A stretch of 64,000 nt of DNA from Selaginella moellendorffii. Lineage: Eukaryota; Plantae; Lycopodiophyta. Of this stretch, positions 13,991 to 41,845 are shown in pieces. The DNA lies in NCBI RefSeq assembly GCF_000143415.4, contig NW_003314325.1, forward strand, positions 1,024,086-1,088,085. The letters are read 5' to 3'. Made by a program: the position numbers and the translations under genes. The notes beneath the pieces are model-generated. The model was not told the origin of the DNA, did not search any database, and saw only the letters and a list, made by a program, of their open reading frames with translations. Position 1 is the first letter of the stretch. Every line of letters starts with the position of its first letter.

Positions 13991-14029
13991 CTTTCCTCCC
14001 AAGATTTCTTCATTGTGCTGAATTTCTTG

Positions 14030-15179: not shown

Positions 15180-17860
15180 TTGAGAAGGATGGAGAGGTTT
15201 CTTCTTCATTTTTGAGATCACCCACCTCTTTCATTCTCTCAGAATATTGTTTTTGAAAGTTTTTTATGTCGGCGTTTTGATCTTCGTCTTGGCTCTATTT
15301 CTTTAGAGGTTGTGATCCGCAACGACACCAGTATAGTTGCATACTCGAAGTTTCTTCTTTCTGGTGTGGGCAAGGGTGGACAACAATGGGATTTACAAAA
15401 TTCCAAGTCGAAGGAGATTTGAGTGTTTGGATCTCCAGTCAAAATGCCAAAATGCGCTCCAGCCATAGTGAATGTGAAGCAAGAGTTAGTCGTTATCCTC
15501 TCGTCCTCTTCTAGTTCAAGTGGAGATGTCATGCTAGTGTCGGCGCCAAATTCACTAGCTCCAGCTCTAGCTTCAGCTCCAACTTCAACAATATTTAAAG
15601 CCGTTAGCAATGCTTTCCAATTTTCACACCTCTCAATCAACATGCACTTGTTTTTGTATAATCTTGTGAGTGAGCTTCCATCCTCCTATAACGGCAACAT
15701 TTTCTTCGAGCTACCACCTCTTGTCAGCAGCACAGGTTCCAAACTGAAGGGGATGGAAACAAAGCAGGATGTCCACAATTGGTGCAAGATCAAGACCACA
15801 CACTTCCAACATTTTGAAGGCACAGTGTCTATAGTTCATTGTGGCGGGCATTTAGATTGTGTGGATGAAGCATGTAATCAATACTGCTCTAGAAACTCTA
15901 TATTTTTCGAAGGGTCTGCAGTCAATCCTCCAGCCTGTGACACCATTGCTGTTGGATTCAAATGTCAATTCTGCAAAAATGCTCCTCTATATCGTGCTAT
16001 TTGTGAGGCCAAGATGTACTACTTTCTTCCATGGGATGGAGTGGCTGGAAGAGCTATAATGCATGTTGGCACACATATGCATCTAATGTAGGAAGGGATA
16101 CAAAGGAGTTCTCTCAACCGTTTCAAAGATGCTGTACAGGAAGAGACTATGAAAAACTCATCTGCAACTCCGAAGCATGTTCAGAAGACAGTCCTCAAGG
16201 ATTTTATTGCAAATACCTTACTCAATCCAGGTTGCCAAAAGACTCAACTAAACGAGGTTACCTTGCGGGACTTACTATGAGGAGTACAACCTACTACTAG
16301 CCTAAGAAGGTACATTCGTTATTTTTCATACATTATAATAATAATTTTTTCTTACATTATATTGTTTAGGATAAAATCTTGGATGTGTGAATCTCGAGAA
16401 GGGAAGTTGCAATCAAAAATTGACTCCATCCTTGAATTGAAACGGACCTGTCTATACGAGTTCATCCATGGAAGTTTGTTTCCAGACCAAGTTGTGAATG
16501 AGCAAGAGCGCCCCTTCGTCTTCAAAATGTCTACCATGGGCCCTGCCTCTAGTGTAGATCTTGTCTCCCGAATAGACATGTTTGGGTCCAATGACCTTGC
16601 AAATGCATGGGTACATTTTAACCATATGGAGCGTGTATCCGATTGGACAACCATGGGAGCTCATGTGTATGATCCAAGGTAATTTTTATTCTCATTATAT
16701 TGAAATTGTTATAATATTTATGTTTTCATAGGCTACGTTGTAACTTAACAATTGCGACAGTAGAGTTTAAAGTACAAGACCAGACAGCACAGGAAATATT
16801 TTGGAAGTCCCTCTCTAATATTGTCCCAAAGCGGATTGGTAAGCCTGCAAACTTTCGTGGTTTCATGGCAGATGAGGCTAGTGCAAACTGGAATGGTATC
16901 CGAGCAATTTTTGAGAATTGTGAACCATTCGAAGGTCGTGAGAGGACCTGTGAGTTCCATTGGGCTCAAAGCCTAAACCAGCACTGCCACTTTATCAAGC
17001 CAGAGTTTCAATCAATATTTAAGGAGTTGTGCAAACAATGGCAGGTTGCACCTTCTGAAGAAGAGCATGAGGCAAAAGCAAATGAGATCTGAATGTGGTG
17101 GCGTGAAGATGGCCATACAGACGTAAGTTGCCTACCACAACTTGAGCCATGGTTAGGATGGTGGGAAGTTAGGATGTTCCAGTGGGGACATCACTCTTTT
17201 CATGTTAGTTTATATTTTTTCTTCTCCTTTTATTGCCTCTTAATATTGCCTTTTCCATTAGGATCAACCACTTGAGGACCTCGCATACACCCCAACTGTG
17301 AATCTCTCTGAAAGTAAGTATTAGAGTTGGCGTTCCTCTGAGGCAGGGAAAGGGAAGATGAGTCTATACGAAACTTGTCTATCAGATTTGATACGTGCTA
17401 TAGAGCAATCTTCAAAAACACTGGCATTCCAGGAAGGAAGATACATGGGAACAGGGCCTTCTATTGAGATGTTACATGATAAGATGAAGAGAAAATTAAC
17501 TCCACCCGCTCGAACAGTGGCAACTGCAGTTGAGGAAGTGGTCCGTGGAACATTTATGAAGTACACTCCCTAAGCTTCTATTGGTGATATGAAGACTGTC
17601 CGTTCAAAGCATCGTTTTTCCTTTGCTGGGGAAGATATTGGTACGGACCTTGGAGCAAAAAGCTCTCACAGGCCTGATGTCGAATACCATTCTGCTCCAA
17701 GACACCACTCTCAAACTGAGCCACCTCAAGTGGCTGATGAAGAGAGTGCATCGCAATAGGTTGAAATTGCTTACTGTAGCGTGGAGCCGAAGCAATGGGA
17801 AATTCAACGCGTGCCAGCAAAATCAAATGTAAGGTGTGTGGGGATGCTTCCGAGGGGCAA
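15180..17860 (+). pseudogene. MULE DDE transposase with GCM-like Zn domain (5' part, copy B)
   Basis: WCKIKTT..CGGHLDC..C..CQFC..CEAK..HVGTH; WVHF(N/D)H..; GFMADEASAN..CEFHWAQSL (Mutator CxxH); GT-AG introns at ~16310-16369, 16679-16731 and 17204-17261. Confidence 0.8.
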
Positions 17861-19505
17861 TGTAAGCAACTAATTTTTCCATTCTACTTTAGTCACTTAA
17901 CCACACCTCCGACCACTTGGAGGAGTCTCATTCACAACCTCCATAAGTCCAATCTAGGACTTGGGACTTGCTAGCCCCAAGAATGGCATCCATGCCACTC
18001 AACCCTTGCACTTGGTCCAAGTGCTCCACGTGTCCGATCCCATGCCCAACACTCAAAGGTACCACTGACATAGCAACCTATTACGCTAAGGCCATGCCCA
18101 TTCACCTTGGTCACACTGGTGGTCCGACACCACCTCCATCACAGTCCCATCTCTCAAGGATTGAGCCGTTTGTTCATGAGTGATCATCCCAGATCCACTC
18201 CTTAGCATCCTTAGGATGCCCATAGACATGGGGAATAGCCTTTCCCAATATCCCCTTTTTGGTCTCCACCAAGTCCCTTTCTACCCATGGCCGTGTTTGC
18301 CAACACTGCCACTGGATCAAGGCTCACAGGCCCGATCACTAAGTCCCACGGTCCTCTGGGACTTCCTCACCACTCGACTGTATCTTTGGTCACTACACTA
18401 GAGGACTACTCCTCTTCCTTTCCACAGTCTGGGCCCTTTCGACAACATTTCGGAACACCGTGGCCCTACACGGGCCTCATGGGTACTCTCCCTGCCTTCC
18501 GCCTTTGGGTGCTCTAGCCATGGGCTTAGAGTGAGGTTCTGTTGAGCCACGCCAGGTATCCAAGTAGGTAGTGCCACCCACACTTGGACTGGGAGCATCG
18601 GCCAGTCGATCTCCCGGGGGAACTAGAGCTAGCTCTTGAACACTTCACCAAGCTACCCCGCTTGTCAGTCTGTATTCACTCTAGTCTTGAACTTCCTAGT
18701 GGTCAGTTCATCACCCAACACTGGGCATGGCCTTCCTGGGCCAAACTGGCCTTTCCTGGGCCAAACTAGCTCCACTGGGCTCCAACCCCCACACTCTCCC
18801 TACTATACTTTTGGAACCCCCCGCAGCGCCCCCCCCCCCTGGGGGACGATCGCTTTGGGCTTTCACCCAACTGCCTATATTAGTATTCGGACTCGGACTT
18901 GGACTCGGACTCAGACTTGGGCTAGGTCTCGACCTTGGCCTCGGTATCGGTATCGGTCTCGGTCTCGGTCTCGGTCTCGGTCCCAGTCTCGGTCTCGACC
19001 TCAGACTCCATCTCGGGTCCTTCTCGAACTCCATCTCGGATTCCATCTCGGGTCCATCTCGGAATCCATCTTGGACTCCGTCTCGGTCCATCTGAAACTC
19101 CATCTCGGACTCCGTCTTGGTCCATCTCGGAATCCACCTCGGAATCCATCTCGGACTCCACCTCGGACTCCAACTCGGGTCCATCTCGGACTCCACCTCG
19201 GACTCCATCTCGGACTCCATCTCAGACTCCAACTCAGGTCCATCTCAGACTCCATCTTGGTCCATCTCGGACTCCTCCATGTGTCATGTGTTGGTCCTTT
19301 TTGGGTCCCTTTTTGGAGCCTTGCTTATTGGTTTCCTCGTGCTCGCTCCTCAAGCACTTTGTTGGGAGTTCCACTCCCGCTCTCGACCTTCCAAATCAGA
19401 GCTTTTAGTCCAAACGTGTTATGCTCGTTTGGCTTTCGCTTCGGCCACTACCACGTGGCACCCTTCCTGGTTCCACTTTGGGGCCTAGGGATTTTGTGTC
19501 TCACA
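17861..19505 (-). repeat. 3' LTR of the outer element (contains GGTCTC and GGACTCCATCTC tandem arrays at ~18890-19276)
   Basis: High identity to 38950-39929 + 40416-41070. Confidence 0.9.
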
Positions 19506-20975
19506 ACTCCACCACCCATAGACGAAGTTGGATGTCCTCATCAAACGGTAAACCCTTTTATAAAGTAACACCCGTAGCTATTACCATTTCCATCCTTGGC
19601 ACCTAGCCAATATTTGTCTATGGTTTGACCCCGAAAGCTCACCATGCCTTGTCCATCCTCTAAGGAGCATAGTCTCTCCAACCTAGAGACTCACTTGACC
19701 ACCTGGGGTAGTTTGCTCCCTTTTATTGGTTCAGTTCTCGCTATACCTGTTAGAGACACCCTCTCTAACTCAATTCCACTACTCATTCTTGAGTAGTCTT
19801 AGATTCCATTGACCTAACCTTTGCACTTTAGAACTTTTAATTTTGACTTCTCAGAGTCAATTTCCTAGGTGTTTCCGACACCTTACGTTGCACATGGTGC
19901 AACTCCACTTCCCTATCCTAGGAAGTTCTTTACTTGAGGGTACTATCATCCTCTCTTAAACATCGTGCCACCTTTGGCACTAAGTTTTAGTTATCATAAT
20001 TGGTATTAGGGCTGCCCCACGGCCCTACTATTTGGCTACTTTACCGCTCCCCCCTTTGGAGCAACCACTTTCGCCAAATCGGAGCGGTTGGGAATCCATC
20101 CTTGGGGAAACATTGCCTTTCCCACAATCCGTTAGCACCCAACACATTAGTGTTCTCGGCTTAACTTTGCCATTTGGATTCTTTCCTATGATTCCCATGG
20201 CTTTTTTCTTAGCCACTAGTCTTTTGTTTTTATCCATTGATTGTTGCACTAAGCAACATAGGATCATTACCTCCATTCTCGAGGTATCCTTTTGGTTCCA
20301 TGGCAAAGGCTCTACTTTGCTAAGTCCAGCGGGTGCTCACCCCTAGTAGGTCTCTTTAGCAATTTCTGCTACGGGCTTCATCCTCGGCCCAACTTTGCGA
20401 CCCTCCTATGGGTCTCTCCCCGAGACTACTTTCTTGGACTTACTATACCATCGTATTGGCACAACTGATTTCCCTTTAGGTGTCCTTCCCACTTGGTCAC
20501 CTTGACCAAGCCACACCATTATCGAAAGTTCAAATCAACACTTTGAACTGGGAATCATATTCCTTAACCCAAACAAAGACCTTGTCTTTGTTTAACCACA
20601 AGATCACCTAGTGATCTCATCTTGACCCCTTAACAGGTCTACCAATAGGAACTAAGTTTTCCAGACCCTTTTAAATCGTTGACTATAACCCCAGGGGCAT
20701 CCCCCACACTTGGCGGTGTGCCCAAGCAAGCCCTTCCGGCCAAGGATTCATAGCAACTAAAACTGGGTGTCCCCATCTCATTCACCACGTCCTTGGTGCC
20801 TTTTGCACCAAAGTGTTCAAATTAGATATGCTGAGTTTTCACTCTAAGCAATCTAACCATGCATCACAACTCCGAGGCATCCCTCGCTTAGCGGTGTGCC
20901 CAAACCAGTCTCCTCACTAAGAGTCCATGACCACCGAAATATGAGTGTCTTCATATTCTAAACCATCACCACACC

Positions 20976-21030
20976 CTAGTGATTTGGGACTCGAACCCAA
21001 GCACTAGAGGGTTGGGACTCGAACCCAACC
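20976..21030 (-). other. Tandem tRNA T-arm/B-box-like hairpins in the 3' region of the outer element
   Basis: GGGTTCGAGTCCC twice on the minus strand, each within a stem; homolog at 25058-25125. Confidence 0.6.
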
Positions 21031-23024
21031 TTTGTATATGCATCTATAGACGGCATCACCCTAGATGCCTGGTGTGACTCCCCACGCCGGTGCACCAACT
21101 TATACTTAAAGCACGCTATAGATCACAGCTTAGGAACCAAGTTCCTCCACACTGCCAAGTCCTCTCACTTGACATGTCTGTGATCATGCATGGACTCCTC
21201 CACGCTTGGCACCATGGCCCCCTTTATGAAGTTATCACCTTCAATTAGGGTATTTGTTCCCCCGACTTGCCAATCTCGCTTGGCAAGTCCTCCGACCACC
21301 ATAACATGGTTCCTGCATAAGCGTAAAAGTTCTTGACCATCGACTTTCGTTCAAAGCCTTCTCTTTGAACACTCGGGAACTACTTCCCTAACCTTGATAG
21401 CCTTGCCTCCTGGCAAGCTTCAAGACCACGCTTCTGTTGCGCCACTCTGGTTTCGCGCGTTCCATGAACCATTTACACTTTGGCCTTTCTAGGTACTAAG
21501 CTACCTAGAATTGTCTTTGGGAACCTTGAAGGGACTCTATCCCTTAGCTTGCCTAGGCCTTCTTTTTCGCAAACTTTCTAGTTGCCATATAGTCTAACAT
21601 GGACAATTCCATATTTTAGACTCTCCATGGCATCAAGGTTGCTAGTAACAACATCCTCGAGCCCCCACTTGATTCTCCACTCCCAACTGGCATAACCAAC
21701 CTTAGTCATGCCCTTCAATTCCTACGGTTCGGTTCTATCCCCTTACTACTTGTTTTTGGCTTCACACCTTTCCTTCGGTCATTCTCCTCCAGACTAGGAG
21801 GATAGCTTTGCACTTTCTATCATGCCTTAGCAAGTATTCTTAGGGATGAACCTACTTGATAGCCTAGGGAGTGGTTCCTCAATCTAGATATGCTCACCTT
21901 ATAATCCCACACACCAGGATTAACATTGCTACTCATGTGCCTTCACTATCCTTGCCAAAATTCCATTTTTGGCTTTGTCCAATTCGGGTAGATAGTCTTC
22001 TCCCATCTTCGCAACTTTGGACATTTGGATAGCACTTTCTATCCATCATTCGCTAGGGACTTAGTCCCTTGGGCCTTATCTATTGCCCTCGCGACACACC
22101 ACCTCCTGGTGTTCCAAAGTGTTTGGGTGTCACAATGATGGTCTCCTTGACAATGAGCATTTCCTTTTATGACATTAACTCACTATATCGCAACATAAGC
22201 AATTTATCCCCTATAAGGGTATATCTAACTTCCTTAGAAGCCTTAGGTAGTTACCTTCTACCAATTTAACCAATTATTTCGCACCTTTTGCTTAGTTGCC
22301 TCATAGTTATCCAAGTCCTACAACTCATTGCTGGTGCTTCCACACCTCCATCATTATTTAGGTCACCACACTCTAACCGCATGCCTTCCAGCTTAGGCTA
22401 TGCCATTCCCATTTCCATTGGGATTCCTTTGGAAGGGGTTCTCATGAACCCGCCAACTTAACCTCAAGGTATAACACTTTGGCACATTTGGTGTCTTCAC
22501 ACTACCGGCTCGTGTCTAGGTCTTTTGCCAAGACTAACACAGTCATTTCTCATGCCAACTATCCGTTGGCACTTCATCACAGTGTTCTCACACAACTCTA
22601 CACCAAAGTTGCTTTCTTTTGGGAACACCTTTCCCACGACTTTAGTATGGCACATTCTGCCATCGAGGAGATACCCTCTGTTCTCAATTTTGGATCCTAT
22701 GATCCCCCCATCCTTCGTGGGGTATAACACACCTCAGTCCAAATGTTTCTATCAATCCTTTAGGATTATTCTTTGACTCCATTTGAGTCATCCAGCTTTT
22801 TGGACTTTGTCATCTGACGACCCGTGAGGTTCTACCTTTGAGGTGCTAGCTCACTAAAATACAACTTCTTGTATTCAAGTCTTACTCATAAGGACCATCT
22901 TTGCAAGTGTTACTCCGACACTTGATTTGTTCTCTTGGGGCAACCTTTTGCCCCTTACGACCACTTGTCCATGTGATGAGAATACCAACTCATCCTCTAA
23001 GTACATCCTCAACTCCTTAGGTTG

Positions 23025-24016
23025 TGTAAGCTCCTGAGTTTGGACTTCCCGGGAGGTCACCCAGCCCAGTACTATTCAAACCCAAGGACGCTTAACTCCA
23101 AATATCCCAAGACCCTTAACCAATTGGAAAAGGGGGTGCACTCTTTTTCATGGGCCCTTTCCCTCTATATTTGAACCCCATGGACCGTCTCTCGAGTCGT
23201 TCCCTTTGGTTGCTTACAATCCACCACGCTTCCCTGCAAGTTCACGCCCTCGTGAACGGAAGCTGAGAGCCGCAGCTCTCCCGAGAGCCCCGCTCTCTTG
23301 ACACCCTACCCCTCGGGTCGAGCCCAGTGGGAGCAAACTGGACCAGCCAGATGTCAATCAACATGTGGTGTGATTCCCTTAGCCAACCAACAGAGTCGGA
23401 CCCGAGACCTCTCTGATACCAAATGTAAGCTCCTGAGTTTGGACTTCCCGGGAGGTCACCCAGCCCAGTACTATTCAAACCCAAGGACGCTTAACTCCAA
23501 ATATCCCAAGACCCTTAACCAATTGGAAAAGGGGGTGCACTCTTGTTCATGGGCCCTTTCCCTCTATATTTGAACCCCATGGACCGTCTCTCGAGTCGTT
23601 CCCTTTGGTTGCTTACAATCCACCACGCTTCCCTGCAAGTTCACGCCCTCGTGAACGGAAGCTGAGAGCCGCAGCTCTCCCGAGAGCCCCGCTCTCTTGA
23701 CACCCTACCCCTCGGGTCGAGCCCAGTGGGAGCAAACTGGACCAGCCAGATGTCAATCAACATGTGGTGTGATTCCCTTAGCCAACCAACAGAGTCGGAC
23801 CCGAGACCTCTCTGATACCAAATGTAAGCTCCTGAGTTTGGACTTCCCGGGAGGTCACCCAGCCCAGTACTATTCAAACCCAAGGACGCTTAACTCCAAA
23901 TATCCCAAGACCCTTAACCAATTGGAAAAGGGGGTGCACTCTTTTTCATGGGCCCTTTCCCTCTATATTTGAACCCCATGGACCGTCTCTCGAGTCGTTC
24001 CCTTTGGTTGCTTACA
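23025..24016 (-). repeat. TRIM-like tandem array of 399-bp units (LTR-A + 205-bp internal)
   Basis: Near-identical units starting at 23025 and 23424, closed by LTR 23823-24016; the same unit recurs at 29369-29767. Confidence 0.9.
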
Positions 24017-24020
24017 ATCG

Positions 24021-24602
24021 CCCCACAAAATTATCCGAAGCACCCGTGTCAATAAGGATCTTAACAAAGCTACCTCCGAGCTTCCCTCGGAGGGCTAGTA
24101 GATGTCGCGAACGACTCTCTACCAAAGTTGCTCGTGTAATGAGTAACTTTGAGTTAGGGACTGGATCACATACCTCATTTTGGACTTCGCCCGACTTGAT
24201 GGCCATATTGGCTCTGGCCTTCTTCGGGTAGGGACATTCCCTTGAAAAGTGTCCCGCTTCACCGCAGTTATAGCATACGTTGTTTCCCACGCTGCTATAT
24301 GACTTGACCTTCTTATCCGTGGGTTTGTCTCTTTTCGCTTGACTCCCCCACGTACTTGCTCGCTGGCCACCGGATTTGCCTTTCCGAAATCCCGAGGACT
24401 CATTCTTAGAGAAACTCTTCTTGAATTTCCCCCTGCTATATGTTCCCCTCGGTTTGGCCCCTTTGTGAAATGTGGATCCCGACCCCGTCGTGTTCCCCTT
24501 TCACAGGTTATCGTTGAAATGCACCTTGATGGCCGCATCCAACGCTTCCTTGTAGTTGGTCGGGTTCCAGCGCATCACCTCACCGCGAGCCCAGGTTTGC
24601 AA
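24021..24602 (-). pseudogene. Duplicated gag zinc knuckle/protease N-terminal fragment
   Basis: Near-identical to ~28701-29281 ([21 protein letters not shown]). Confidence 0.9.
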
Positions 24603-25017
24603 ACCGGACCAGCCAGATGTCAATCAACATGTGGTGTGATTCCCTTAGCCAACCAACAGAGTCGGACCCGAGACCTCTCTGATACCAAATGTAAGCTCCT
24701 GAGTTTGGACTTCCTGGGAGGTCACCCAACCCAGTACTATTCAAACCCAAGGACGCTTAACCCCAAGTATCCCAAGACCCTTAACCGATTGGAAAAGGGG
24801 GTGCACTCTTTGTCACTTCGGTCAAGCTTTTGGGGATCCTTTAGCCTACGACATCTCGGGGAGTCGGTTCCTTACAACTCCACCACCCATAGAAGAAGTT
24901 CGATGCCCACATCGAACGTCTCGTTTTATCCTACGACTTGTTGTCCATGTCTCCGGGGGCATCCCCCCACTTAGCGGTGTGCCTAAGTTAGCCTCCCCGG
25001 CCAAGAGCCCATGACAA

Positions 25018-25142
25018 CGGAATATAGGTGTCCCTATATTCCTCACCTCACCACGCCCTAGTATAGGGTCGGGACTTGAACCCAGCCTTGCTTTACTAGG
25101 GGGTTGGGACTCGAACCCAACCTCCGTAGAATACGTCTACGG
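25018..25142 (-). other. Structured RNA module (multiple hairpins, two T-loop/B-box motifs) in the chromovirus 3' UTR
   Basis: Stems GGAATATAGG/CCTATATTCC, CTAGTA/TACTAG, GGTTGGG/CCCAACC, CCGTAGA/TCTACGG. Confidence 0.6.
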
Positions 25143-25279
25143 ATTCGACATCCCCGCAGGGAGTCGGGCGTAGTGCCCTACGCCTGGTCGACCTATCCAA
25201 CCCATGCTAATTAGCTTACCTTTGGCGCACCTTCGGGTCCCAACATATGCCATTTGCTCAACTTTGCAAATTGATATTT

Positions 25280-28200
25280 TTAATTGAATTTTGCATAAGT
25301 ACATAAAGTTCTGCCTTGCAGAAATTCCTCCACTAGATCTCGAGCGTTCGCTAGGTTCTCCTCCGGTTCCCATGTTGCTTCGCAGTGTGGAAATCCTTTC
25401 CACTTCACATGGAACTCTCTCACCTCGCGTCCTTGTCGCTTGCTCTTGCGCGCATTGAGGATGGCCTCGACTTCGTATTCCTCTTCCCCTTGGATAACCT
25501 CAGGTAAAGGTCTCACTTGGTCCTTGCGAAGTGGATCCTCAAAGTACGGCTTGAGTAAGTTCACGTGGAACACTGGGTGCATCTTCCCCATCTCTCGAGG
25601 AAGTCGGAGTCGGTAAGCCACTTTACCGATTCGTGCCTCAATTTCATAAGGCCCCGCGAACCTGCTTAAGGAACTCAAGATCAATTCATTTACAGGAATA
25701 CATGCGTCTTTACCTTTGGGTCAACTTTCGGCTGATCCAGCTTGGTAGTCTGAGGTTCTTGGTGTTCAGCCACACCTTCTCCCCAGCTTGGAACTCCACA
25801 TCCCGACGCTTTTGGTTCGCGTACTTAGTTTGCCTTTGTTGAGCCCGTTCCAAGGAATCCCTCACTAGATTCCAAATGTTGAGTCTTTCCGCCGTGAATG
25901 CCTCCACTGCGGGTAACTCTCCATGATACTCGGCCACGCCGAGTTCCACAGGACCTTCAATAGCTCGCCCATTGATGACTTCCCATGGACTCACCCCGAT
26001 GCTTGAGTGTGGTGAGTTGTTATAACACATTTCCGCAAGTCCCAAATGACTTACCCAGTCGGTCTGGTCTCCCGAGACATAGCATCGCAAATAATCCTCC
26101 AGCTGCCTATTCACCCTTTCCGTTTGTCCGTCTGTCAAGAAGTGTTAGTGCCATCAATCTTGACTTAATACCCATTACCTGTCTGTGGGTGATAGGCTGT
26201 GCTGAATTTCAATTTGGTGCGATACTGTTCTAGGAGTGTCCTCCAGAACCTACTAGTGAAGATCTTATCTCGATCTGAGATAATCTCTTCCGGCCTTCCC
26301 CGCACTCGAACCACTTGTTCAAAGAACAGCTTCGCCACACCTTCCGCATCCACGTCCGTTGTGGTGGGTATGAAATGTGCCATCTTTGAAAATCGGTCCA
26401 CCACCACGAATATCGCATCAAACCCCTCGCTTGGGGGTAGTCCCGTGATGAAGTCCATCGTAAGGCATTTCCACGGGCGATCTGGAATTGGGATGCTTTG
26501 CAACAAGCCCCCACTAGCCTTAGTCACGGCTTTGACCTGCTGACATGTTGGACATGTCTTTACATAGTCTTGGACGTCCTTAGCCATATCTGGCCAATGG
26601 TACTTCCTCTTGAGTAAGCCCATCGTCTTGGGCACTCCGCCGTGTCCCGCAAGAGGTCCGTCATGACACTCTTCTAAGGCCACCTTCCTTAGTTCCCCTT
26701 CTAGAACATACACCCTCGTTTGCTTGTAATAAATGAGTCCGTTGCGTTCCGCATAGCCCGTTTTCTCTTCCGTTGGCAGCTCACCTCTCTGGTGAGCTTC
26801 CCGCGCCTCTAGATTCCTCAGCAACACTTCTTGTGCTAGACCATCGTTCTCATATGCTGTCCGCACATCGTCCCAGAAGGTTGCTGTTGCGCTGGATATT
26901 GCCAACTTCAAGCTCGCTTTTCGACTTAGCGCATCCGCCACGATGTTGCTCTTCCCAGGCTTGTACAGAATTTCGCAATCAAACTCGGCCAAGGCATTGG
27001 CCCACCGACCTTGTTTCCCTCTTAGGTCGGGCTGTGACAAGAAGTGTTTCGTCGCCACATTGTCCGTGTAAACCTTGAAGTGTCTCCCAAGGTAGTGTCG
27101 CCACTCCTTGAGTGCCTTGACCACCGCAAACAATTCTTTCTCATGGGCAGGCCACTTCCGTTGAGCCTTGTCCAGCTTCTTCGAGAAGAACGCTACCGGA
27201 TGGTTGTCTTGCTTCAGAACTGCGCCCAACGCAAAGTCCGAAGCATCCGTTTCTACCTCAAAGTCCTTACCAAAGTCTGGCAATGCCAATACGGGAGCCT
27301 TCCTCAACTTCCCTTTGAGGTGGACGAATGCCGCCTCGCATTCTGCTGTCCATACCATCTTCCCTTTTCCTGTTTGGTCCGTTAAGGGCAGGGCTACTCT
27401 CGAATAGTGTCTGATAAACTTTCGATAGTAGTTGCATAGCCCCAGGAACGCCCTCAACTCATGTACATTCGATGGTCACTCCCATTCCTGGATCGCTTGG
27501 ACCTTCTCCGGGTCCACCTTGAGCCCGTCCTGGCCCACCACATGCCCGAGAAACTTTACCTCTTGTTGAGCAAAGTCACATTTGCTCTCTTTAGCATACA
27601 GCTTGTGTTCCCTTAGTTTCTCAAACACCTTCGCCAAGTGTTCGGCATGCTCTTCTAGCGTCTCGCTATAGATCAGGATGTCGTCGATATAGACGACCAC
27701 GAAGTGATCCAGATAGGGTACAAAGACGTGGTTCATTAGCGCCGAAAACGTTGCCGGCGCATTACATAGCCCGAAGGGCATCACCAGAAACTCAAAGCTC
27801 CTATACCTCGTTCGACAGGTTGTCTTCTCGACATCTTCCTCGGCTACCCTGATCTGGTAGTATCCTGACCTTAGGTCAATCCTCGAGAAGTATTTTGCCT
27901 TTCCCAACCTATCGAACAGGTCCTCAATCCTTGGCAAAGGGTACTTGTTCTTCTTTGTATACTTGTTGAGCAAGCGGTAGTCTATGCACATGCGCATAGA
28001 TCCATCTTTCTTTTTCACAAATAACACCGGCGCCCGATACGGCGACTTGCTCAACCTAACATACCCTTTGTCCACCAACTCCTCTAGTTGGCACTTGAGC
28101 TCCTTGAGTTCTTTTTCGTTCAAACGATAAGGGGGACGAACCACTGCCTCAGCACCCTCGACCAGCTCAATCTTATGTTCTATCGGTCGTGCTGGGGGCA

Positions 28201-29281
28201 GCCCCGCCGGTAGCTCCTCCGGCATGGTATCCTGGAATTGGTCCAACACCCGCTGGATCACTAAAGGCACTTCTTCCGTTCTTGTCTTTTTGTCACTCTT
28301 CACCGAGAGTAAGCACAAAAAGGCTGCCTTAGTTCCTTTAGTGAGTTGTCCTCTCGTGGACACCAGGTTTAAGCAGGATTCTTTGGCCTTGCTTTGCCCT
28401 ACCTTTAGATCCTGGGCTTCCACCCTAGATCTTCTTCCTTGGGCATTCGCCAGTACCACAAGGTTCCTACCTTGTCCATGTAGGGCTACCACGAACCGAT
28501 TGAACCAATCCATTCCGAAGATCACGTCAAATCCCGCCATGTCCAACACGGTGAAATCCATGTCTACCTTCCAAGTCCCTACTTCGACTTTCGCTTGTCG
28601 AAGTACCTCATCGGTGCTTTGGCTACCTTGAACAAACTCTATAGTCCTTGGTTCGCCTAGCCGCTGCACCGTTAGTCCGGCTTGCCGGACTATGTCTGCA
28701 GCCACAAAATTATCCGAAGCACCCGTGTCAATAAGGATCTTAACAAAGCTACCTCCGAGCTTCCCTCGGAGGGCTAGTAGATGTCGCGAACGACTCTCTA
28801 CCAAAGTTGCTCGTGTAATGAGTAACTTTGAGTTAGGGACTGGATCACATACCTCATTTTGGACTTCGCCCGACTTGATGGCCATATTGGCTCTGGCCTT
28901 CTTCGGGTAGGGACATTCCCTTGAAAAGTGTCCCGCTTCACCGCAGTTATAGCATACGTTGTTTCCCACGCTGCTATATGACTTGACCTTCTTATCCGTG
29001 GGTTTGTCTCTTTTCGCTTGACTCCCCCACGTACTTGCTCGCTGGCCACCGGATTTGCCTTTCCGAAATCCCGAGGACTCATTCTTAGAGAAACTCTTCT
29101 TGAATTTCCCCCTGCTATATGTTCCCCTCGGTTTGGCCCCTTTGTGAAATGTGGATCCCGACCCCGTCGTGTTCCCCTTTCGCAGGTTATCGTTGAAATG
29201 CACCTTGATGGCCGCATCCAACGCTTCCTTGTAGTTGGTCGGGTTCCAGCGCATCACCTCACCGCGAGCCCAGGTTTGCAA
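25280..29281 (-). pseudogene. Chromovirus gag(C-terminal)-PR-RT-RNaseH-IN-chromodomain polyprotein with two introns and one premature stop
   Basis: CCHC knuckle, DTGAS, YIDDIL, ETDAS, HHCC, MDFITGLP, HPQTDGQTE (after splicing), GPY, chromodomain YEVEAIL..KWKGF..TWEP; in-frame TGA at 27476-27478; introns 26132-26178 and 25662-25713. Confidence 0.93.
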
Positions 29282-30624
29282 ACCGGACTAGCCAGATGTC
29301 AATCAACATGTGGTGTGATTCCCTTAGCCAACCAACAGAGTCGGACCCGAGACCGCTCCGATACCAAATGTAAGCTCCTGAGTTTGGACTTCCCGGGAGG
29401 TCACCCAGCCCAGTACTATTCAAACCCAAGGACGCTTAACTCCAAATATCCCAAGACCCTTAACCAATTGGAAAAGGGGGTGCACTCTTTTTCATGGGCC
29501 CTTTCCCTCTATATTTGAACCCCATGGACCGTCTCTCGAGTCGTTCCCTTTGGTTGCTTACAATCCACCACGCTTCCCTGCAAGTTCACGCCCTCGTGAA
29601 CGGAAGCTGAGAGCCGCAGCTCTCCCGAGAGCCCCGCTCTCTTGACACCCTACCCCTCGGGTCGAGCCCAGTGGGAGCAAACTGGACCAGCCAGATGTCA
29701 ATCAACATGTGGTGTGATTCCCTTAGCCAACCAACAGAGTCGGACCCGAGACCGCTCCGATACCAAATGTAAGCTCCTGAGTTTGGACTTCCCGGGAGGT
29801 CACCCAGCCCAGTACTATTCAAACCCAAGGACGCTTAACCCCAAGTATCCCAAGACCCTTAACCGATTGGAAAAGGGGGTGCACTCTTTGTCACTTCGGT
29901 CAAGCTTTTGGGGATCCTTTAGCCTACGACATCTCGGGGAGTCGGTTCCTTACAGGTTGTTCCAGCATTTATCAAGGGTAGCCTCGGCTACCATTTCGAG
30001 GACTTGTGTCCTCTCCTGTATTTAACCTCCCATGGTCATCAATTCCGGTCTCAAAGTTATGAGCACCAGCCTCAACTATATGAGGGACTCCTTTATTGTT
30101 TTGGAGTCTGCATCTTTCCCGTGATCCCACTATAGTTTTTTACCACAACTATGTTAGCCCGTTTGCTACGTCAAATGCTCATAAGCTCTATTTCGTTAAA
30201 GTGGGAATTGTCATTATCCCACTTGTAAAATAAGGTTTCCAAACCTTTATATAGTATATAAATATAATAAAATTCAACTGCATTGAGGCACATGCCATTT
30301 TATTTTAAACAAGGAAATGTCTACTCAATCACTTCTCCTCCCCCTGCCACTACTTCACCTCTCTCTTCTCTTTGTCATCGTTGTCCAATTTCTTTCCATC
30401 CTTTTAATATTGGCTCAATTGCTCTGAGTCTAGGTGGAGCCCAAGTCCCCATTCAATCTTTACTTTCCCCTTATTAATAAAACAACTTCGTAGACTTCCA
30501 ATAACATGCTGTAACACTTCTAGTATAATGAAAATCCTCTCAAAGAATTGTCTTTTAATATTAATACAATGGCATGGAACACCATGCCATAATAAGTTAC
30601 ATTTTTAAATAAATACATGCCATC

Positions 30625-32210
30625 TCAGACTGTTATTTTTTGCCTCCAACGCCTATACAATAATCTTGGAATTTCATCACTCTCCACACTATCAGGATTT
30701 AAACCCAATAGTAATGCCATCTCTTCTCTAATACGTCCACGCTCATGTTCAGTGGTCGAAGAACCCATCCGCAAGGCGTTGAGCTTCAAATCATTGGGCT
30801 TCCGGCCGTCCTCCACACCCATTGAGTTTAGCAACTCCCCGTCATGGTACCTCCTCAGCACATCTACCCATTTGTCAAAAACAACTTTTGTCGCGAGTAG
30901 AATGTTATGGATGCTGAGTGTGTCATTGACCCCCAGTGTTTTCGAGAGAAGACTCGAGAATTCTTGCAATGGAAATGGCGTGAGGCCACATGCTATGCCA
31001 CATGCAACGAGGCTTACCTGCCAGGCGCTAGTTGCTAGTGCACGTCCTTGTCCTGGTTTTTGTGGCTTCTTTAGTTGAACCCAGAGCTTCCGTGTTCGTG
31101 CCAATGTCTCGTGCAGACCCGATTTGTAGCACGTTTCTTGCTTGACATTCTGCGCGTGGGAGATGTATATGATAGATCGGAGGGGCGAGTTGCCTTTTAT
31201 CAGGCGGACAACTCTTGTCTTGAAGACTTTCTTCACCTCCTCGCCCACCATAATATCCACAACTATCTCTTGCATCGCCAAGCTAGAATGCTGCCCGGAG
31301 ACGGCATAGAACCGGATGTTCTGATCATCCAACACCTTCCTATTGATCAAGTCTGGAAACCTCGTATAACCCTTCATTGTTCAGTAGTAGGGGATCACGT
31401 CTGCGATGTCGGGTGTTACTAGACTTGCCAGCATCTTCTGCTTCAGTTTCTCCACCCACTCATCAGATACTAGCCTGTGGTTGTATTTGCTTTGGATGTC
31501 GATATGGCTCACGTCGATTGTATATACTTTGTTGGAATAGTAACAAGTACTATTATCTGCGATGATTTTTGCTGCCTCTTCTTGCTCTTTCTGCTCTTTG
31601 CGGCTCTTCTTTTTGGTGGGTGTAGTGTTCGAACCCGAGGCAATGGCATCACCGAGTAGCTTCTTTTTTGGAGTAGGAACGTCGGCTTGAGCTTGACCAC
31701 CCTTTTCTGCTTCGGGGTAGTTTCCAGATCGACCCCCTTCCCCTTCGCTTCGCAAACTGGAGGCACTCTCAACGGCTCAATGTTGGAATATAGTTTTTGA
31801 ACATCGCCGTAGGTGAGGTCCGTGGATTCCATGTGATCTTTATAGACCCGCAGCGTCTTTGAAATTGTGGGCCTCCTGGACAACCTCTCCCTAGCTCCCT
31901 CTAGGAATTCCTCATAGCCGCTGCCCCCCTCCGGGAAGCCGCTAGGATGTGCAAGGTGGATCTTGAAGGCAGACATTGTCTCTACCACAAGTGCCAGTCC
32001 ATATTCTTGCATGGAACTGCATGGATTATCTGTCACTTGGATGAGGATCCCCATGCATTCTTTTCTCCCACCATCTGTGTTGTACAGCCTTAGATCCTCG
32101 CCTTCCATCCCGAAAGTCCAACTAGTGAGCTCCTCCCCCTTCTCTGCATCCAGATTGACAGTGGCCGGAAGAAGAACGCAATTCCTCGCCTGTTCAGAAA
32201 TGCACAACAA
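30625..32210 (-). pseudogene. Spliced gene with a ParB/Srx-like domain (frameshifted)
   Basis: VYTIDVSHIDIQSKYNHRLVSDEWVEKLKQKM..FYAVSGQHSSLAM..RVVRLI; basic NLS-like stretch; in-frame 54-nt GTAAGC..AG intron at ~30964-31017. Confidence 0.6.
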
Positions 32211-33016
32211 TTAGAGCTGACAGATGAAAAGCTAGCAGCTGGAAATAACGTGAAGCCACACACCATTCACCACTGCATCAGATGTCTTGAGGCTGCATCC
32301 TAAGATGGCGTGAGGCTACACGCCATCTGTAACCGGATTGCACTCGAGAGCCCAATCGGTGCATGCCAATGTTGCTATTGAATGGCATGTGGCCTCATGC
32401 CATTTTCTACTTGGCCTAAAAGACTTACCATTTGAAGCCGAATGGAGGCGTGACAATCGAGGCCGGATTCGCTGGCGAATGTGCATTGTGTGTGTAGCGG
32501 ATCGTAGCAGCAAGGCTACTCTGCCACTTACAGTTGGAGAGTGGCACTAAAATCTCCCGGGACGCCAAGTGGGCTGCGTGTGGGTGGCGGACTGGGCGGC
32601 AGAGTTGGCGGCGAAGTTACAAACTAGGTGTGTCTTGAAGCGGACGCCGATGCACACGAGTGCGATGCGAGCGCGAGTGTGATGCAAGCGCGAGTGGACG
32701 CCAATGCACACGAGAAACCTGTAGAGAAGGTAGATGAGTGTGAATGTGAGCGTGATCGCCAGTGGGAGCGCGATGTGAGCGCGAGTACGATGCAAAACCT
32801 AACCTCACACGCGCAAAATGTCACGACGGTTGGTAATCCCGCAACGTCATTATTCCTCGGATTTGGGCGCCACTATTAATTTATGGATCGCCGCGCGCAT
32901 GCATGCACGTGAAATCCAAAAGAAATCCGCAACATCATCATTCCTCGGACTGCATGCATGCGAAATCCAAAAGAAAGATCATGATTGGGATATCATTTAA
33001 TATGCCGAGCAGTTAT

Positions 33017-34487
33017 ACGGCGAATAATCTTGGTGCGGATCGCTGACATGGCATGGCAAAGTTTGAATCACTGACATGGCACAGCTGGATCGAGGCAAGG
33101 ACATGATGTGACAAAGTTCAACGTCCGACAACAAAGTCTAGAAGCTAGTCAGTTTGAAATTTGTTCAGAGGAATTATAAGATCTGGTTTGTCAGAGGATT
33201 TGATGTGACGTTCAAGCGTGTGGGCTCATGCAATTTTGATCCCAAAAAATGCACCGAGAAATGCTCGGCGTCATCTGGCGTTATCTCTTGAATGGCGTGG
33301 GGCCGCATGCCATTTTCAAGGGCACATAGGAGTATATTCTTAGAATATTCTGACACGTGCGAGATTTGTTTGACTTTTCTGGAGATCCAACCGTTAGATC
33401 ACAACTAGATTTTACAGAATGGTATACAATGTCTTTCTTGATGACCCTGCAAAGAAGCATCTCGATCAGACACCACATGAGACCACACGAGCCTTACAAT
33501 GTTTCAGAGGCATTTGCCATAGATCCGACTGTTATTTTGCTCCAAGATTTTACAGTTTGGTGTGCATTGACCTTTCCATCGACACTGCAAAGGGACATCA
33601 CAATCAGATGCGGGATCACAAGAAACTAACTTCACTAACTCTGGTTTCACCAAGATCTACGTAAGGAGTTATGAAATGAAATGACTTTCTCTATTGAAAT
33701 GTGTTTATGGTCCTAGGGGCATTGTGACATATCAAAGGATTTTGCATCAAGTTCTGTATTTGCATGTTTATCAAGCTACTGAATTGCTAAACCCTAAACC
33801 CTAAACCCTAAACATGTGGCAAATGCTGCGTAAAGAAAGATGCCCTTTCTGGGCAAATGCTGTAAGAGGCAGATGCCGAGCAAATGTATCTCAGGCTAGC
33901 GAAGGGGACATACGAAAGCTAGCTATAAACATGACGGGATGCAAATAGATTACTAGGCTGGTCCTGCGAAAATCAAAAACCATAATTGAAAACATTGAAA
34001 ATGCAAAAAGAAAGGTTTATAATATTTTTGAATTTTAAACAACCAAAAGAATGTAAGTAGAGCATGTGTTTGTAAGTTTAAAAATGCCTAAACCACTTAA
34101 ATTCCCAAGTAAATAAAGCTGTTTCTATTTTTGGTACAGGTAAACTTTATAGCGTGTGGGCTCATGCAATTTTGAACCAAAAAATGCACCAAAAAATGCT
34201 CGACTAGCATTATTCTTTGAATGGCATGTGGCCTTATATTGCCATAAATGGACGTACACACACAGCATAATTATTCCTTTACACGGCAAATAATCTTGGC
34301 GCGGATCGCTGACATGGCATGGCAAAGTTCAAATCACTGACATGGCACAGCTGGATCGAGGCAAGGACATGATGTGACAAAGTTCAACCTCCGACAGCAA
34401 AGTCTAGAAGCTACTCAGTTTGAAATTTGTCAGAGGAATCATAAGATCTGGTTTGTCAGAGGATTTGATGTGACGTTCAAGCGTGTG
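33017..34487. repeat. Permuted direct repeats (X-Y ... Y-X) flanking a spacer with (CTAAACC)n
   Basis: X ~33017-33222 = ~34283-34487; Y ~33215-33315 = ~34151-34247; telomere-type repeat at 33787-33813. Confidence 0.8.
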
Positions 34488-35107
34488 TTATTTTTGAATT
34501 CTCGAATTCATTCCTAGGTCTATCATTTTTGTGCGCCGTGTTCTTGGTTCCGCTGAGCGCAGTGAGCGCTGCTTGTGTAAGCGGCGTTGTGAGCTGTGGT
34601 TTATGCGTCTACGAGCGGTTGCGGCATTGCGAGCGCCATTGCGAGCGGCAGTTTATACGAGTGGCAGTTTGTGCGAGCTGCGCTACGAGCAGTTGCGGTG
34701 TTGCGAGTGGCGCTACGAGTAGTTGCGGTGTTGCGAGCGGCACTGTCTTTGGTGTGGCTACCGCTTCCTCTTGATATTCGGCACTTGTGCTTCCTGGTAT
34801 GTTCACCATGGAATGGCTTAGGACCACATTTAGAAATGGCATGAGGCCACATGCCATCTTGGGCCCTTGCAATTTCATGGCTACCATATTGTCATGTATG
34901 TTTTTACTTATGTGTGTCGACGTCCGTGACTAAATGGCATGAGGGCTCATGCCAATTTTGTGAATGCGAAATTTCACGTGGGTGTCAATAGCATGTTTGA
35001 ATAATGGCATGTGGCCTCATGCTATTGAGGTTGTTTGGTATGTTATGATTTAGGCCATTCTCCAATCATTTTTTGTATGGTCTTAACTTCTTTTCTGCAC
35101 TTTCAGA

Positions 35108-37943
35108 ATGGCCTCCGCAAGTGCGACGCATGTTCCCTCCGTGGATCTTAAGAACCGTGCTACATGGATTCAGGCAAAGGTGTTTCTAAACAACCCCGAG
35201 GGGGAGGTGGTAGCTGAGGGCTTAGCCACAGTTATTGATCTAAGAGATGCGGTTGCTAATCAAGAATTGGGCTGGGATGATATTAGAGTTGCGATTTTAG
35301 AGGTTGTTGATACAGAAGAAAACAGTCTGAATATTGGAAGCATTGTGCGGTGGAAATTGAGGCACTTAGTGTTTGAGAATGTGAAGGATTCACAATCAAA
35401 CACCACTACAACTGATGACAGAACATCTCTTCATGGGAAAAGAAAGTACACCTTCCTAAAGCGCAGCCAAAGGGATCTGAGCAACGAACCGAAAAGGCAG
35501 AAAATGGCAATGGAGGTTCGAATGGTCTCGACAGTTGCTTGTTGCAAGAGGAGGTGCTGTCAACATGCTGATTGGGATGCTATTGAAGAGGAGAGAGCAA
35601 GATACAAGACATTGTCCTGGAAGGCAGCTCGCAATTTTGTGTATGAGGCATTACGGTCATCTGTTGATGCTTCAGAACATCAGGTGGGGGGCATGGTCTT
35701 CCAGAGGGGTTTGGTCTGCATGAAGGCATGGAGAATCATTTATGGAGTCCCTCGAACCACATTCTACAGAATCAAAACTGAGTTCGAGGAACAAAGGGTT
35801 CAACAGGCAGTCCATGGGAACGATGGTACTCACAAAACCAGGGGTCATGTTGTATATGGAGAGGCAATCTTCAAAAGGTTTGTCGAAACATGTAGCGAGT
35901 AGCAACCACATAAAACCCGCCTCTCGGAAGATGGAACTCGAGACACCCAACGAGTTCTCCCTTCCATGTATACCAAGGGGGCCATATTGGAAGATGTGAA
36001 TCGGGAACTCCAGAGTAATGGCTACAGGAAGCTGAGCCAATCTAGATTTAGTAGATTGTGGAGCAACAGGTTCAGAGATGTGAGTATAGGAAAGTACTCC
36101 AGCTTTTCAAAGTGTGACGAGTGCACTGCTATCAAAATGGCTTTGTCGAAGAATTCTTGCATCGCTCAAGAGCGAGAGACGTTGGTTAGAAGGCGGCTCG
36201 ACCACAACATCGAGCTGAGAAGCTGCAGGATTGCATATTATCATAACAAGATTCTCTCCATGGAGAGACCTGACTCTTACCTCTGCATCATCCACGACAA
36301 AATGGACCAGAAAAAGACGTGCTTACCTCGACTCAATCCTGCCCCCAAGGCAATCTCTTCATCCATGCAGCTGCCTGTGTCTCTGTTTGGCATAATCGCT
36401 CATGGGCATGGTGCCCAGAACTATGGGAACTTCTTTATACCTCTATGGGGTGGCGGGGGTGCAAACATGATGATTGCGTCTCTAGCAAAACACTTCTCTG
36501 CAAAGTGCGCAGACTGAGCTGAATGGCCAACCCTTGCATAAGGCCCTTGTCGATCGAACCCCATACAGGGTTCAGCTGGAGGAGGAGCAAAGGCTTGCAG
36601 TATCGCATGGGGCCCCATGCCATCCCAGTGAATATGTTGGCTGTCAGATTGTAGGGTTATCATGTGAGGCCTCATGCCATTCTGACGAGGCTGGTCGCCC
36701 GGTGAATGCACAGCCTCATCCAAACGAAGCAGAATCTCAAGGAAGTTCTTGTGGCCGATGTGGCCTTCCACCCCATCTTCTGCTCCAAACAGACAATGCT
36801 GGCAGTGAGAACAAAAACATGTACGTCTTCGCGTACTTGGCGATGCTTGTTGCCAAAGGCATATTTGAAACGGTTACACTTGGCTTTCTCATGCTTGGGC
36901 ACACTCATGAAGACGTCGATGCCATGTTCAGTCACCTGGCAGAGTCCCTTCGGCGATCCAATGTCCTCACCCTCCCACAACTCTACGATGAATTCCAAAA
37001 TTGCATCAAAGGCACTGTTGAAGCTGCACTTGTGACAGAGGTTCCAGACTTTAAGGGGTTTGTAAGAGGCTACATCAGGGACAGATTCGAAACGCTGATT
37101 GGCCACTCCAAGCCTCTTCAATTTCATTTCAGCATGCGTAACGGTGCTCCAGATATGAGGTACAAGATGAGAGAATGGGACATAGTGTGGCTGCCAGTGG
37201 ATGGCATTGAACTCTTCAAGAGAGATCCCATAACTGGGGAACCTATGATTCCTCAGGGTTCCCCACGGCCGATGCACCCGGATGGACTCAAAGACCAGGA
37301 AAGTATAGTGGCCGGGATTAGACAGCATATTGCCTTCTGGAAGAGGGGGTTGGTGTTTGGTGGAGAATCCTATTTTCAGAGGTGCAAGCCTTTGCTCGAA
37401 TACTGGGAGAAGATTATATCTGCTATCCAAAATGGGCCGGTTGTATATGAAGAATTGGAAGAGTCTTTTTGGCCAGAACCCAGAGCACCAGATAGTAGCG
37501 GAACAATGTCCTCTGGAAATGCAGTGACAGATAACGATGTTGAGGATCACTATTGTGGGCCGAGGAACAAGAAGCCGGATTCAGCATTCAATCTAGTACA
37601 GGTCTGCAAAGGAATGGTCGTGCTTGTCAAACCCAGTAATAAAAAACAAATGATATGGGTGGGGCGCTGCATCACTGATGCAGAGGAGGACGCGGAAACT
37701 AACTCCTTCAATGTAACTGTGGAGTGGTTCAAGCCAAGTTCTGGATATACGAAGGATTGCCTAGAAAAGAGATGGGTGTTGAATCCAAGGGATCCCAGCA
37801 TGAGTATATCGGTGGATAATATTGTGCATGGTTGGATGCGGAAGCAGAGTGCCACCATCACCTTGCCAGACCATGCAAGAGATGCAGCAAGAGCATTCAT
37901 AACCCGGGTTCAAGGTGAGATTATGTATTTTATTTCAAGGTGA
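35108..37943 (+). pseudogene. Sola-like DDE transposase (in-frame stop at 35900-35902, disruption near 36517)
   Basis: FSKCDEC, IIHDKMDQ, LLLQTDNAGSENKN, FLMLGHTHEDVDAMFS; N-terminal VVAEG..VRW domain; C-terminal beta-rich domain. Confidence 0.8.
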
Positions 37944-38949
37944 ACAATCCGAATCTAAATCAGAGGAGGCGTGATGGCATGGCGTGATGGCGTGAGGCGT
38001 GACACCAAAAAGGAGGTGTCCACTAGTGCTTAGGCTTATAATGGCGTGTGCCCTCATGCCATTTACTTGATCACCAAATACCTTTTTCGCTTTGCACTAG
38101 TATATCTTAATACCGGTCTGAGAAATAGAATGGCATGTGCCCTCAGGCCTTTTACTAAATCACCTTTAAAAGAAATGCAAGCCTCTATGTCGTAAAAAAA
38201 AGGTACTAGAGAAATTCCTTAATAATATGAATGTTATTTAGTTTCATGAAAATACACTAAGGGTCAAATGAGTTAAATGGCTTCTCCAGACTAGCAATGC
38301 CTCTTGCTACACCTTCACAATTAGATTCCTTAGAAAAAAATAACATTGAATAATATCTAAATGTTCTCACCATTAAGTTATATGTCTGGCTAATAGGAAT
38401 GACGTTCATCTTGGAAAGCTCACCACACGCTCAATGAACAAACAAATAGTGTGTGCGCGCATGCCATCGCTCTTCTAGCTTCAGATTCGGTTTGTTCACC
38501 TTGACAATGAGATTTATTATACAACCAGATGGACTCAGTCTTGACACAAAGTCACCGCGCTAGTCACCATGCCCCAGATATGTCTAGCCCCTGGACAAAA
38601 AACATATAATTTCACGTCATTTTCAAATACTTGAAAATTTGTACCTAGTCCCATTTTACTGAATAAATCCCACTTTAATGAAATAAAGCATTCATCTGGA
38701 TTATATCCTCACTCAATGAGAAAAGCCTTACACTGTTCCCAAGATTCTAAAGTCGTTCCATTATTGGCCCTTTTCTATACACCACCTTGCCTACAAGTTC
38801 ACACGTGAACTGTAGTGGAGAGCCATGTCTTCCTGATTTGCTACTCCTCAAGGATAGACCCACTCCTAGGACCTTCCAATGCCAACACTAGTCGTGATAT
38901 ACTTCAGCACCAATAAGAGTCGGACTAAGGAATAGCTCCGATACCAAAT

Positions 38950-41754: not shown

Positions 41755-41845
41755 ATTTCTCCAACACTATTGATGTTTATTCTCTATCAATAAAACTTAT
41801 TATACTTTACATAATTAATAAAAATGTGCTTTTTCATTTCACTTT

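Follow-up and report, generated by a model that had tools for sequence, protein, structure and literature searches.

Two short introns within the integrase gene of an SM1-Galahad-like chromovirus interior in Selaginella moellendorffii

An integrase gene of an LTR retrotransposon in Selaginella moellendorffii is interrupted by two introns of about 50 nt, which are spliced out of transcript-like contigs and retained in genomic DNA. The window analyzed here is the whole 64,000-nt stretch of contig NW_003314325.1 (assembly GCF_000143415.4, positions 1,024,086 to 1,088,085 of the forward strand), and all coordinates below refer to it. On the sequence evidence, both gaps were confirmed as spliceosomal GT-AG introns, as an earlier note on this DNA had held. 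It is probable that the family maintains two RNA pools, with a spliced mRNA that would yield the integrase and an unspliced RNA that would serve as the genome, the spliced form being barred from reverse transcription.

Coding unit and intron structure

The coding unit consists of three exons on the minus strand (Table 1). In Pfam searches, the upstream piece matched a zinc knuckle, protease, RT, RNase H and the integrase zinc finger and core, and the last piece matched a Tf2-type SH3 domain and a chromodomain. This is the PR-RT-RH-IN order with C-terminal chromodomain of Ty3/gypsy chromoviruses. TG..CA LTRs, a PBS, a PPT and a 5-bp target duplication, likewise features of Ty3/gypsy elements, were all found, with terminal LTRs that differ in their 5' part.

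Table 1. Features of the 5S-bearing LTR array and its coding unit in the window.
Feature	Position	Strand	Description
Whole array	23020..29959	minus	6.9 kb, matching 5-bp CAACC flanks (target-site duplication)
Array tail	23025..24689	minus	Partial second coding unit (to ~24023), three type B LTRs, two mini-element interiors
LTR type A	24690..24876	minus	187 bp, TG..CA, 5S rRNA-like segment, directly after the PPT
PPT	24877..24888	minus	392 nt beyond the stop codon
AT-rich stretch	25314-25262	minus	53 nt, 75% AT, GC..AG ends; contains the stop codon and AATTAAA
Stop codon of exon 3	25282-25280	minus	
Exon 3	25280..25661	minus	GPY/SH3-like part and chromodomain; 309-nt ATG frame
Intron 2	25713-25662	minus	52 nt, GTAAAG...GCAG, phase 2, directly upstream of the GPY motif
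Exon 2	25714..26131	minus	Remaining integrase core with catalytic E; 318-nt ATG frame
Intron 1	26178-26132	minus	47 nt, GTAATG...CTAAC...TTGACAG, phase 1
Exon 1	26179..29254	minus	Zinc knuckle, protease, RT, RNase H, integrase zinc finger, first two catalytic D
PBS for tRNA-Met	29366	minus	Follows the type B LTR 29369..29562
LTR type B	29369..29562	minus	194 bp, 5S-like, upstream of the coding unit
Mini-element interior	29563..29767	minus	Non-coding, PBS and ~200 nt
LTR type A	29768..29954	minus	First LTR of the array

The coordinates, lengths and GT..AG ends of the two gaps were exactly those that the earlier note had given. Neither length is a multiple of three, also as claimed, the remainders being 2 for intron 1 and 1 for intron 2. 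The GC-content is 37-38% in the introns and 51-52% in the exons. CTAAC lies 17 nt upstream of the 3' end of intron 1, and TTGAT is the sole branch-like word in intron 2. Both introns thus have the GT..AG ends, the lower GC-content and the branch-like word of U2-type introns; exact removal in RNA combined with presence in DNA was also observed, in contigs from runs whose type was guessed.

Removal of the gaps had been proposed to restore HPQT/DGQTE and KLTQR/FAGPY (slash, splice junction), and the frames are indeed open on both sides of the introns and fit these joints. In an alignment with Ty3 Gag-Pol (PDB 7q5b), the last residue covered by exon 1 is 1267 and the first covered by exon 2 is 1269, leaving one residue for the split codon. 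Among 94 homologues with HP[QE][TS], 74 run straight on into DG[QL][TS]E, and the remaining 20 either stop at that point or carry substitutions.

The catalytic triad of integrases follows the spacing rule D,D(35)E. Within the integrase core, intron 1 falls after the second D and before the E, and the D-to-E spacing is 35 once it is removed; the third catalytic residue is therefore split off from the first and second. In unspliced RNA, a stop codon occurs four codons inside intron 1, and Pol made from this RNA is cut before the catalytic E, the GPY motif and the chromodomain. Splicing is thus required for a complete integrase with chromodomain, in agreement with the original suggestion. The junction duplications described earlier are present as a 5-nt slide at intron 1 and a 4-nt slide at intron 2. 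They consist mostly of the ordinary AG/GT and CAG/ consensus of splice sites; intron 1 has two bases beyond it.

Splicing in transcript-like contigs

Seven of the 24 sequencing runs listed were examined, as contigs and not as reads. The "RNA" labels of the runs are guesses, and the runs were judged by their behaviour. Runs X1 and X4, from one sample, were DNA-like, and runs X2, X3, X5, X18 and X19, from three studies, were RNA-like. X2 and X3 gave one contig each at a depth of ~10, compared with 32,179 contigs in X1 and 15,105 in X4, and therefore behave as RNA.

Intron 1 was skipped exactly in four of the five RNA-like runs (X2, X3, X18 and X19, representing two studies). Intron 2 was skipped exactly in three of the five (X2, X3 and X18), firmly in one study only. 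Split RNA-seq reads at these junctions were the check that the earlier note had named, and contigs split in this way were found at both. The skipped stretches are precisely the introns, with CT..AC ends on the plus strand. In X2 (record 17), a single contig skips both introns exactly, its three pieces following one another without a break in the record; besides the two skips, it differs in 10 other letters in 2,069. According to the complete eight-row joint table, the short sides of the 47-nt joint are 92 letters in X3, 92 in X18 and 30 in X19, and those of the 52-nt joint are 255 letters in X3 and 27 in X18.

Only the unspliced form was assembled in X5, both forms in X18 and X19, and only the spliced form in X2 and X3. 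The unspliced contigs could be DNA carry-over. Different alleles occur among the spliced contigs, indicating splicing in more than one copy. Most DNA copies differ from the window copy at 24 listed exon sites; the spliced contig of X2 (25333-27500) agrees with the window copy at 19 of these and with the majority at the other 5. The expressed copy is a close sister or an allele of the window copy.

The best matches of a first protein search stood at 48-51%, and database proteins that include exon 2 in a longer product reached at most 48% identity (68 hits of 236 candidates). An annotated spliced model was thus not found, which is weak evidence.

Two further forms were seen at these sites. A variant intron 1 (X19, record 10) carries changes at 26134, 26158, 26174 and 26175. 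Donor positions +4/+5 and acceptor position -3 are altered and the intron is 1 nt shorter, with GT and AG kept; this variant accounts for 0.7-12.5% of the DNA depth in X4. In X18, a divergent unspliced contig has a loose end at 25710, where it closes in an A-run on the plus strand that may represent an antisense poly(A) tail or neighbouring genomic DNA.

Retention in genomic DNA

In DNA run X4, none of the 15,105 contigs skips intron 1 or intron 2 in the complete eight-row joint table, although contigs drop rare variants and rare intron-free DNA copies are therefore possible. The same table contains six unrelated one-contig joints at depths of 7.75-12.2. The summed depth at listed sites in X4 was 13,529-60,350 in the introns versus 6,573-79,142 in the exons, contig depth not being equivalent to copy number. 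In DNA run X1, neither exact skip was among the 15 of 43 joints listed, and depth through both introns was ~0.5-1 million. It is clear that the family is highly abundant and carries the introns. The earlier note had allowed that the insertions might be unique to this copy and never spliced; neither holds, as the family carries them and spliced contigs exist.

Selection on the exons and origin of the introns

Differences among DNA copies were scored at the 34 best-supported sites. In exons 2-3, 16 of the 18 left the protein unchanged, as did 15 of the 16 in exon 1, compared with ~34% expected for transitions. The 16 of 18 silent differences point to purifying selection on the protein in the spliced frame. 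By this measure, the parts of the exons that translation reaches only through splicing are under purifying selection.

The introns were sought in 78 related loci with 40-54% identity, of which 72 were scorable at junction 1 and 31 at junction 2. An insert of more than 1 nt was absent from all 72 and all 31, respectively. As no scorable relative carries an insert, both introns were likely gained in this lineage.

The junction duplications had been taken earlier as resembling introner/protosplice intron gain. An introner origin was unsupported, since neither intron has terminal inverted repeats (longest, 2-3 nt), the likeness between the two introns is no greater than that of shuffles, and no second copy of either was found in the window or the 78 loci. 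Membership in an introner family, that is, a family of introns derived from a DNA transposon, was therefore rejected on both counts, inverted repeats and recurrence, within the window and the 78 loci.

Identity of the element

The anatomy of the coding unit matches that in the published description of SM1-Galahad. SM1-Galahad is a Galadriel-related chromovirus of S. moellendorffii present in hundreds of copies (Novikov et al. 2012, PMC3350952). Its consensus is described there as a 3,885-bp ORF that lacks a chromodomain and two shorter downstream ORFs (316 and 309 bp), the second of which encodes the chromodomain. The corresponding frames here are 318 and 309 nt, again with the chromodomain in the last, and the tRNA-Met PBS and the hundreds of copies are common to both.

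The interior here (4,492 bp) and the main frame (3,090 bp) are each ~0.8 kb shorter than in SM1-Galahad. This shortfall fits a gag deletion with loss of the capsid region; Pfam gave no capsid domain match in the shortened gag of exon 1. Exon 1 also contains one in-frame stop at 27478-27476. With neither a complete gag nor an open pol, which an autonomous copy would have, the window copy is defective as judged from its sequence. The published LTRs of SM1-Galahad are longer than 1 kb and contain poly-G, whereas those here are of 187 and 194 bp, carry 5S sequence and have no poly-G. Because the published LTRs are absent, the element was filed as an SM1-Galahad-like interior and not as a plain member.

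PMC3350952 nowhere speaks of introns or splicing, and the literature found on Galahad in Selaginella contains no mention of element introns. Our reading corrects the published annotation in that the three ORFs of SM1-Galahad are one spliced gene.

A young array with 5S-bearing LTRs

The coding unit is part of an array in the order A, mini-element, B, coding unit, A, partial coding unit, B, mini-element, B, mini-element, B, where A and B denote the LTR types. The two A LTRs are identical at 185 of 187 positions and the four B LTRs at 193-194 of 194, which indicates that the array is young. Since the terminal LTRs are unlike in their 5' part, the array did not arise from one simple round of copying.

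All six LTRs contain a 5S rRNA-like segment, with Rfam scores of 34.1-37.1 bits (gathering score 38) and E-values of 0.0002-0.001. Each of them also has the succession of box A, 18 nt and box C, a pattern taken from PMC7215508, with 2 mismatches; 0.01 matches are expected by chance. In the mini units, these boxes in the LTR are followed by the tRNA-Met PBS and by a short non-coding interior, and the units form tandem arrays with a 399-bp repeat unit. The same box arrangement, PBS and LTR-sharing tandem arrays are described for Cassandra TRIMs (PMC7215508, PMC10886601, bioRxiv 10.1101/2023.07.14.548913). In the parts of these three sources consulted, the hosts named are ferns and flowering plants, not lycophytes. 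Cassandra TRIMs are non-coding and have no known helper, the helper being stated as unknown by Kojima 2024 and Kalendar 2020, whereas here the 5S-bearing LTRs flank a pol-coding unit. The direct flanking of a coding chromovirus interior by Cassandra-type LTRs suggests co-packaging and template switching, and the window copy is a defective chimera.

The interior of the mini-element (29563-29753) aligns with the 5' leader of an enclosing LTR element (38700-38934, minus strand) at 112 of 146 aligned bases, with a score of 64 compared with a maximum of 32 in 2000 shuffles. From this homology, the mini-element was likely derived from a Galahad-type leader. A Selaginella TRIM paired with a Ty3 helper (Gao et al. 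2016) was considered and set aside as a different element, its LTRs being 104 bp long.

Proposed sorting of spliced and unspliced RNA

In the proposed arrangement, the spliced mRNA would make the complete integrase with chromodomain, and the unspliced RNA would be the likely sole template for reverse transcription. We infer that spliced RNA is barred from this step because even modest use of it would fill the genome with intron-free copies. Selective use of the unspliced form, which the earlier note had raised, is a sound supposition. The window copy itself would need Gag and enzymes in trans.

One place where sorting might occur is the AT-rich stretch at the end of the gene, which the earlier note had offered as a third intron at ~25262-25315. 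The stretch is as AT-rich as described, but its splicing was not borne out: no joint across 25314-25262 is found in the complete joint table (from 25220) or in the rows listed of the other table, and a contig of X5 reads through it. In one DNA contig, the sequence here is replaced in a different and inexact way. The X2 and X3 contigs that lack the introns run up to the margin of the stretch, to 25333 and 25323 respectively, and have no loose end there, although both runs belong to one study and contigs cannot show RNA ends. Contigs of X5 and X18 are present further downstream (25096-25424). The stretch is thus a candidate early 3'-end signal, but these contig ends hint at it weakly at best. 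Among the sorters, we favour one in which splicing is coupled, as in EVD, to 3'-end formation at this place, although we hold it less likely than not. Such an end, 0.4 kb before the PPT, would leave the spliced mRNA without PPT and 3' LTR. The probability left over by the particular sorters considered here goes to selective export or packaging.

The sorter could also act at the other end of the RNA, through a leader intron whose removal takes the PBS out of spliced RNA and so prevents priming. Candidate sites are present, a GT within the PBS (29364) and a TAG at 29288 on the minus strand, 77 nt apart. However, the leader of the window copy contains some mini-element sequence and may be atypical of the family, and its splicing would need tight coupling to splices 3 kb away. 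We consider this sorter unlikely.

It is less probable still that a distinct RNA without a cap, which avoids the spliceosome, serves as the genome, whether initiated at a second Pol II start, as in BARE, or at the 5S Pol III promoter that LTRs of this subfamily carry. The RNA pool that BARE packages is neither capped nor polyadenylated (PMC3735527), and the boxes described above in all six LTRs would suit Pol III. Runs of four or more T in the coding pieces number 5, versus 10.4 under synonymous shuffling (p = 0.024), and there is no T6. Yet the 4.8-kb span still contains five T4 runs and one T5, and 2 of 19 control ORFs are equally poor in T-runs, so this signal is weak and not specific. Moreover, the LTRs published for the family exceed 1 kb and are not described with 5S sequence in the sections of PMC3350952 consulted, and Pol III therefore cannot explain retention throughout the family. 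Kojima has also argued that the processivity of Pol III is too low for autonomous elements.

Alternatively, there may be no sorting, if splicing is rare where transposition occurs, so that most templates simply remain unspliced and a small spliced fraction provides the integrase. Unspliced contigs in three of the five RNA-like runs agree with this, but X2 and X3 assembled the spliced form alone. Any leak should also fix intron-free copies, which need no splicing, and none was seen among the 15,105 DNA contigs. This explanation is improbable.

We give even less credence to the element being a passenger, in which the integrase was broken by the inserts, splicing is a by-product and the enzyme comes from a relative that lacks introns, such as SM2-Galahad. 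SM2-Galahad is reported with a single intact ORF and hundreds of copies, and an intact SM1-Galahad was not found (PMC3350952); the defective window copy would fit as well. Against it stand the purifying selection on exons 2-3 in the spliced frame (16 of 18 differences silent) and the variant intron 1, which retains GT and AG despite its changed donor, acceptor and length. That the gapped contigs are rare intron-free DNA copies or assembly artefacts is scarcely credible: although the label "RNA?" was given by guess, X2 and X3 hold one contig each at a depth of ~10 versus 15,105-32,179 in the DNA runs, and the skips match the GT..AG ends exactly in four runs and in none of the DNA.

Returning to the two RNA pools, we put forward a more far-reaching version tentatively. 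In it, splicing would be an obligatory switch, by which the spliceosome assembles the catalytic triad and at the same time unfits the RNA for reverse transcription. The same family would be the helper of the 5S-bearing Cassandra-type mini-elements and would recombine with them into arrays. If this is true, gene-like introns survive hundreds of RNA-based copyings.

Comparison with known systems

Intron loss is the classic proof of retrotransposition (PMC12786077), and a 2025 review, in the part consulted, names Ogre and EVD alone as intron-bearing plant LTR elements. In Ogre, as here, the full polyprotein is obtained only after some of the transcripts are spliced, and genomic copies retain the intron (PMC6317226). 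Ogre has one intron of ~270 bp between two ORFs, which gates RT, RH and IN together, whereas the two ~50-nt introns described here lie inside the integrase, one of them within the catalytic triad, and gate only the integrase and chromodomain.

In EVD and other Arabidopsis Ty1/copia elements, splicing likewise yields a dedicated mRNA and the full-length RNA retains the intron (PMC5580714). Their spliced RNA gives Gag alone and their unspliced RNA the enzymes, a division that is reversed here for the integrase. Splicing there is coupled to early termination, which is only hinted at in our data. BARE1/BARE2 are similar in having separate RNA pools for translation and packaging (PMC3735527). Those pools were shown experimentally, in the copia superfamily and with an intron that favours Gag, whereas the pools here are proposed.

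Outside plants' LTR elements, foamy viruses make integrase solely from spliced RNA and have an unspliced genome (PMC7828637). There a long splice removes gag and the enzyme coding sequence is uninterrupted, unlike the present case. Penelope-like elements also keep spliceosomal introns after retrotransposition (PMC8557442), but they use a non-LTR mechanism and their introns are mostly in the 5' UTR.

No earlier description of integrase introns was found in the literature searched, a search whose scope excluded subscription journals, Repbase and Dfam, and the part of PMC5718144 consulted held nothing relevant to them. The two-intron integrase is a new variant of the two-RNA strategy of Ogre, BARE and EVD. 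It would mean that the mRNA of an LTR element can be kept almost wholly separate from the genomic RNA, and the 47- and 52-nt differences provide a built-in tag for which RNA gets packaged. Elements in compact genomes that are regarded as "frameshifted" may be intact. The chimera with 5S-bearing LTRs offers a lead on the unknown Cassandra helper.

Genomic surroundings of the array

The array lies within a non-coding LTR element (17861-41070, minus strand) that has long LTRs with tandem repeats and a poly-G at 18839. This enclosing element has a tRNA-Met PBS at 38946, the same PPT and flanks that match at 4 of 5 positions. It shows a 70% match to the 3' UTR of the inner element, of which it is a decayed relative, and its poly-G LTRs resemble those published for SM1-Galahad. 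A probable DNA transposon lies inside it at ~30200-38400, with ORFs at 35087-37940 and a Pfam DUF7869 match. The 472 bp at 37887-38358 are found again, with 99.4% identity, in the 5' LTR of the enclosing element (39930-40401). The insertion site of the enclosing element is an older duplicated repeat with 82-89% identity (3-5417, 12437-17860 and 41071-42743).

Two ORFs on the plus strand lie beyond this repeat cluster. The first, of 777 aa at 45018-47348, contains PPR repeats and is consistent with a land-plant host. The second, at 49550-50212, has a weak match to the Argonaute N-terminal domain (E = 0.00085, below the cut-off) and possibly represents exon 1 of an Argonaute gene beside the repeat cluster.
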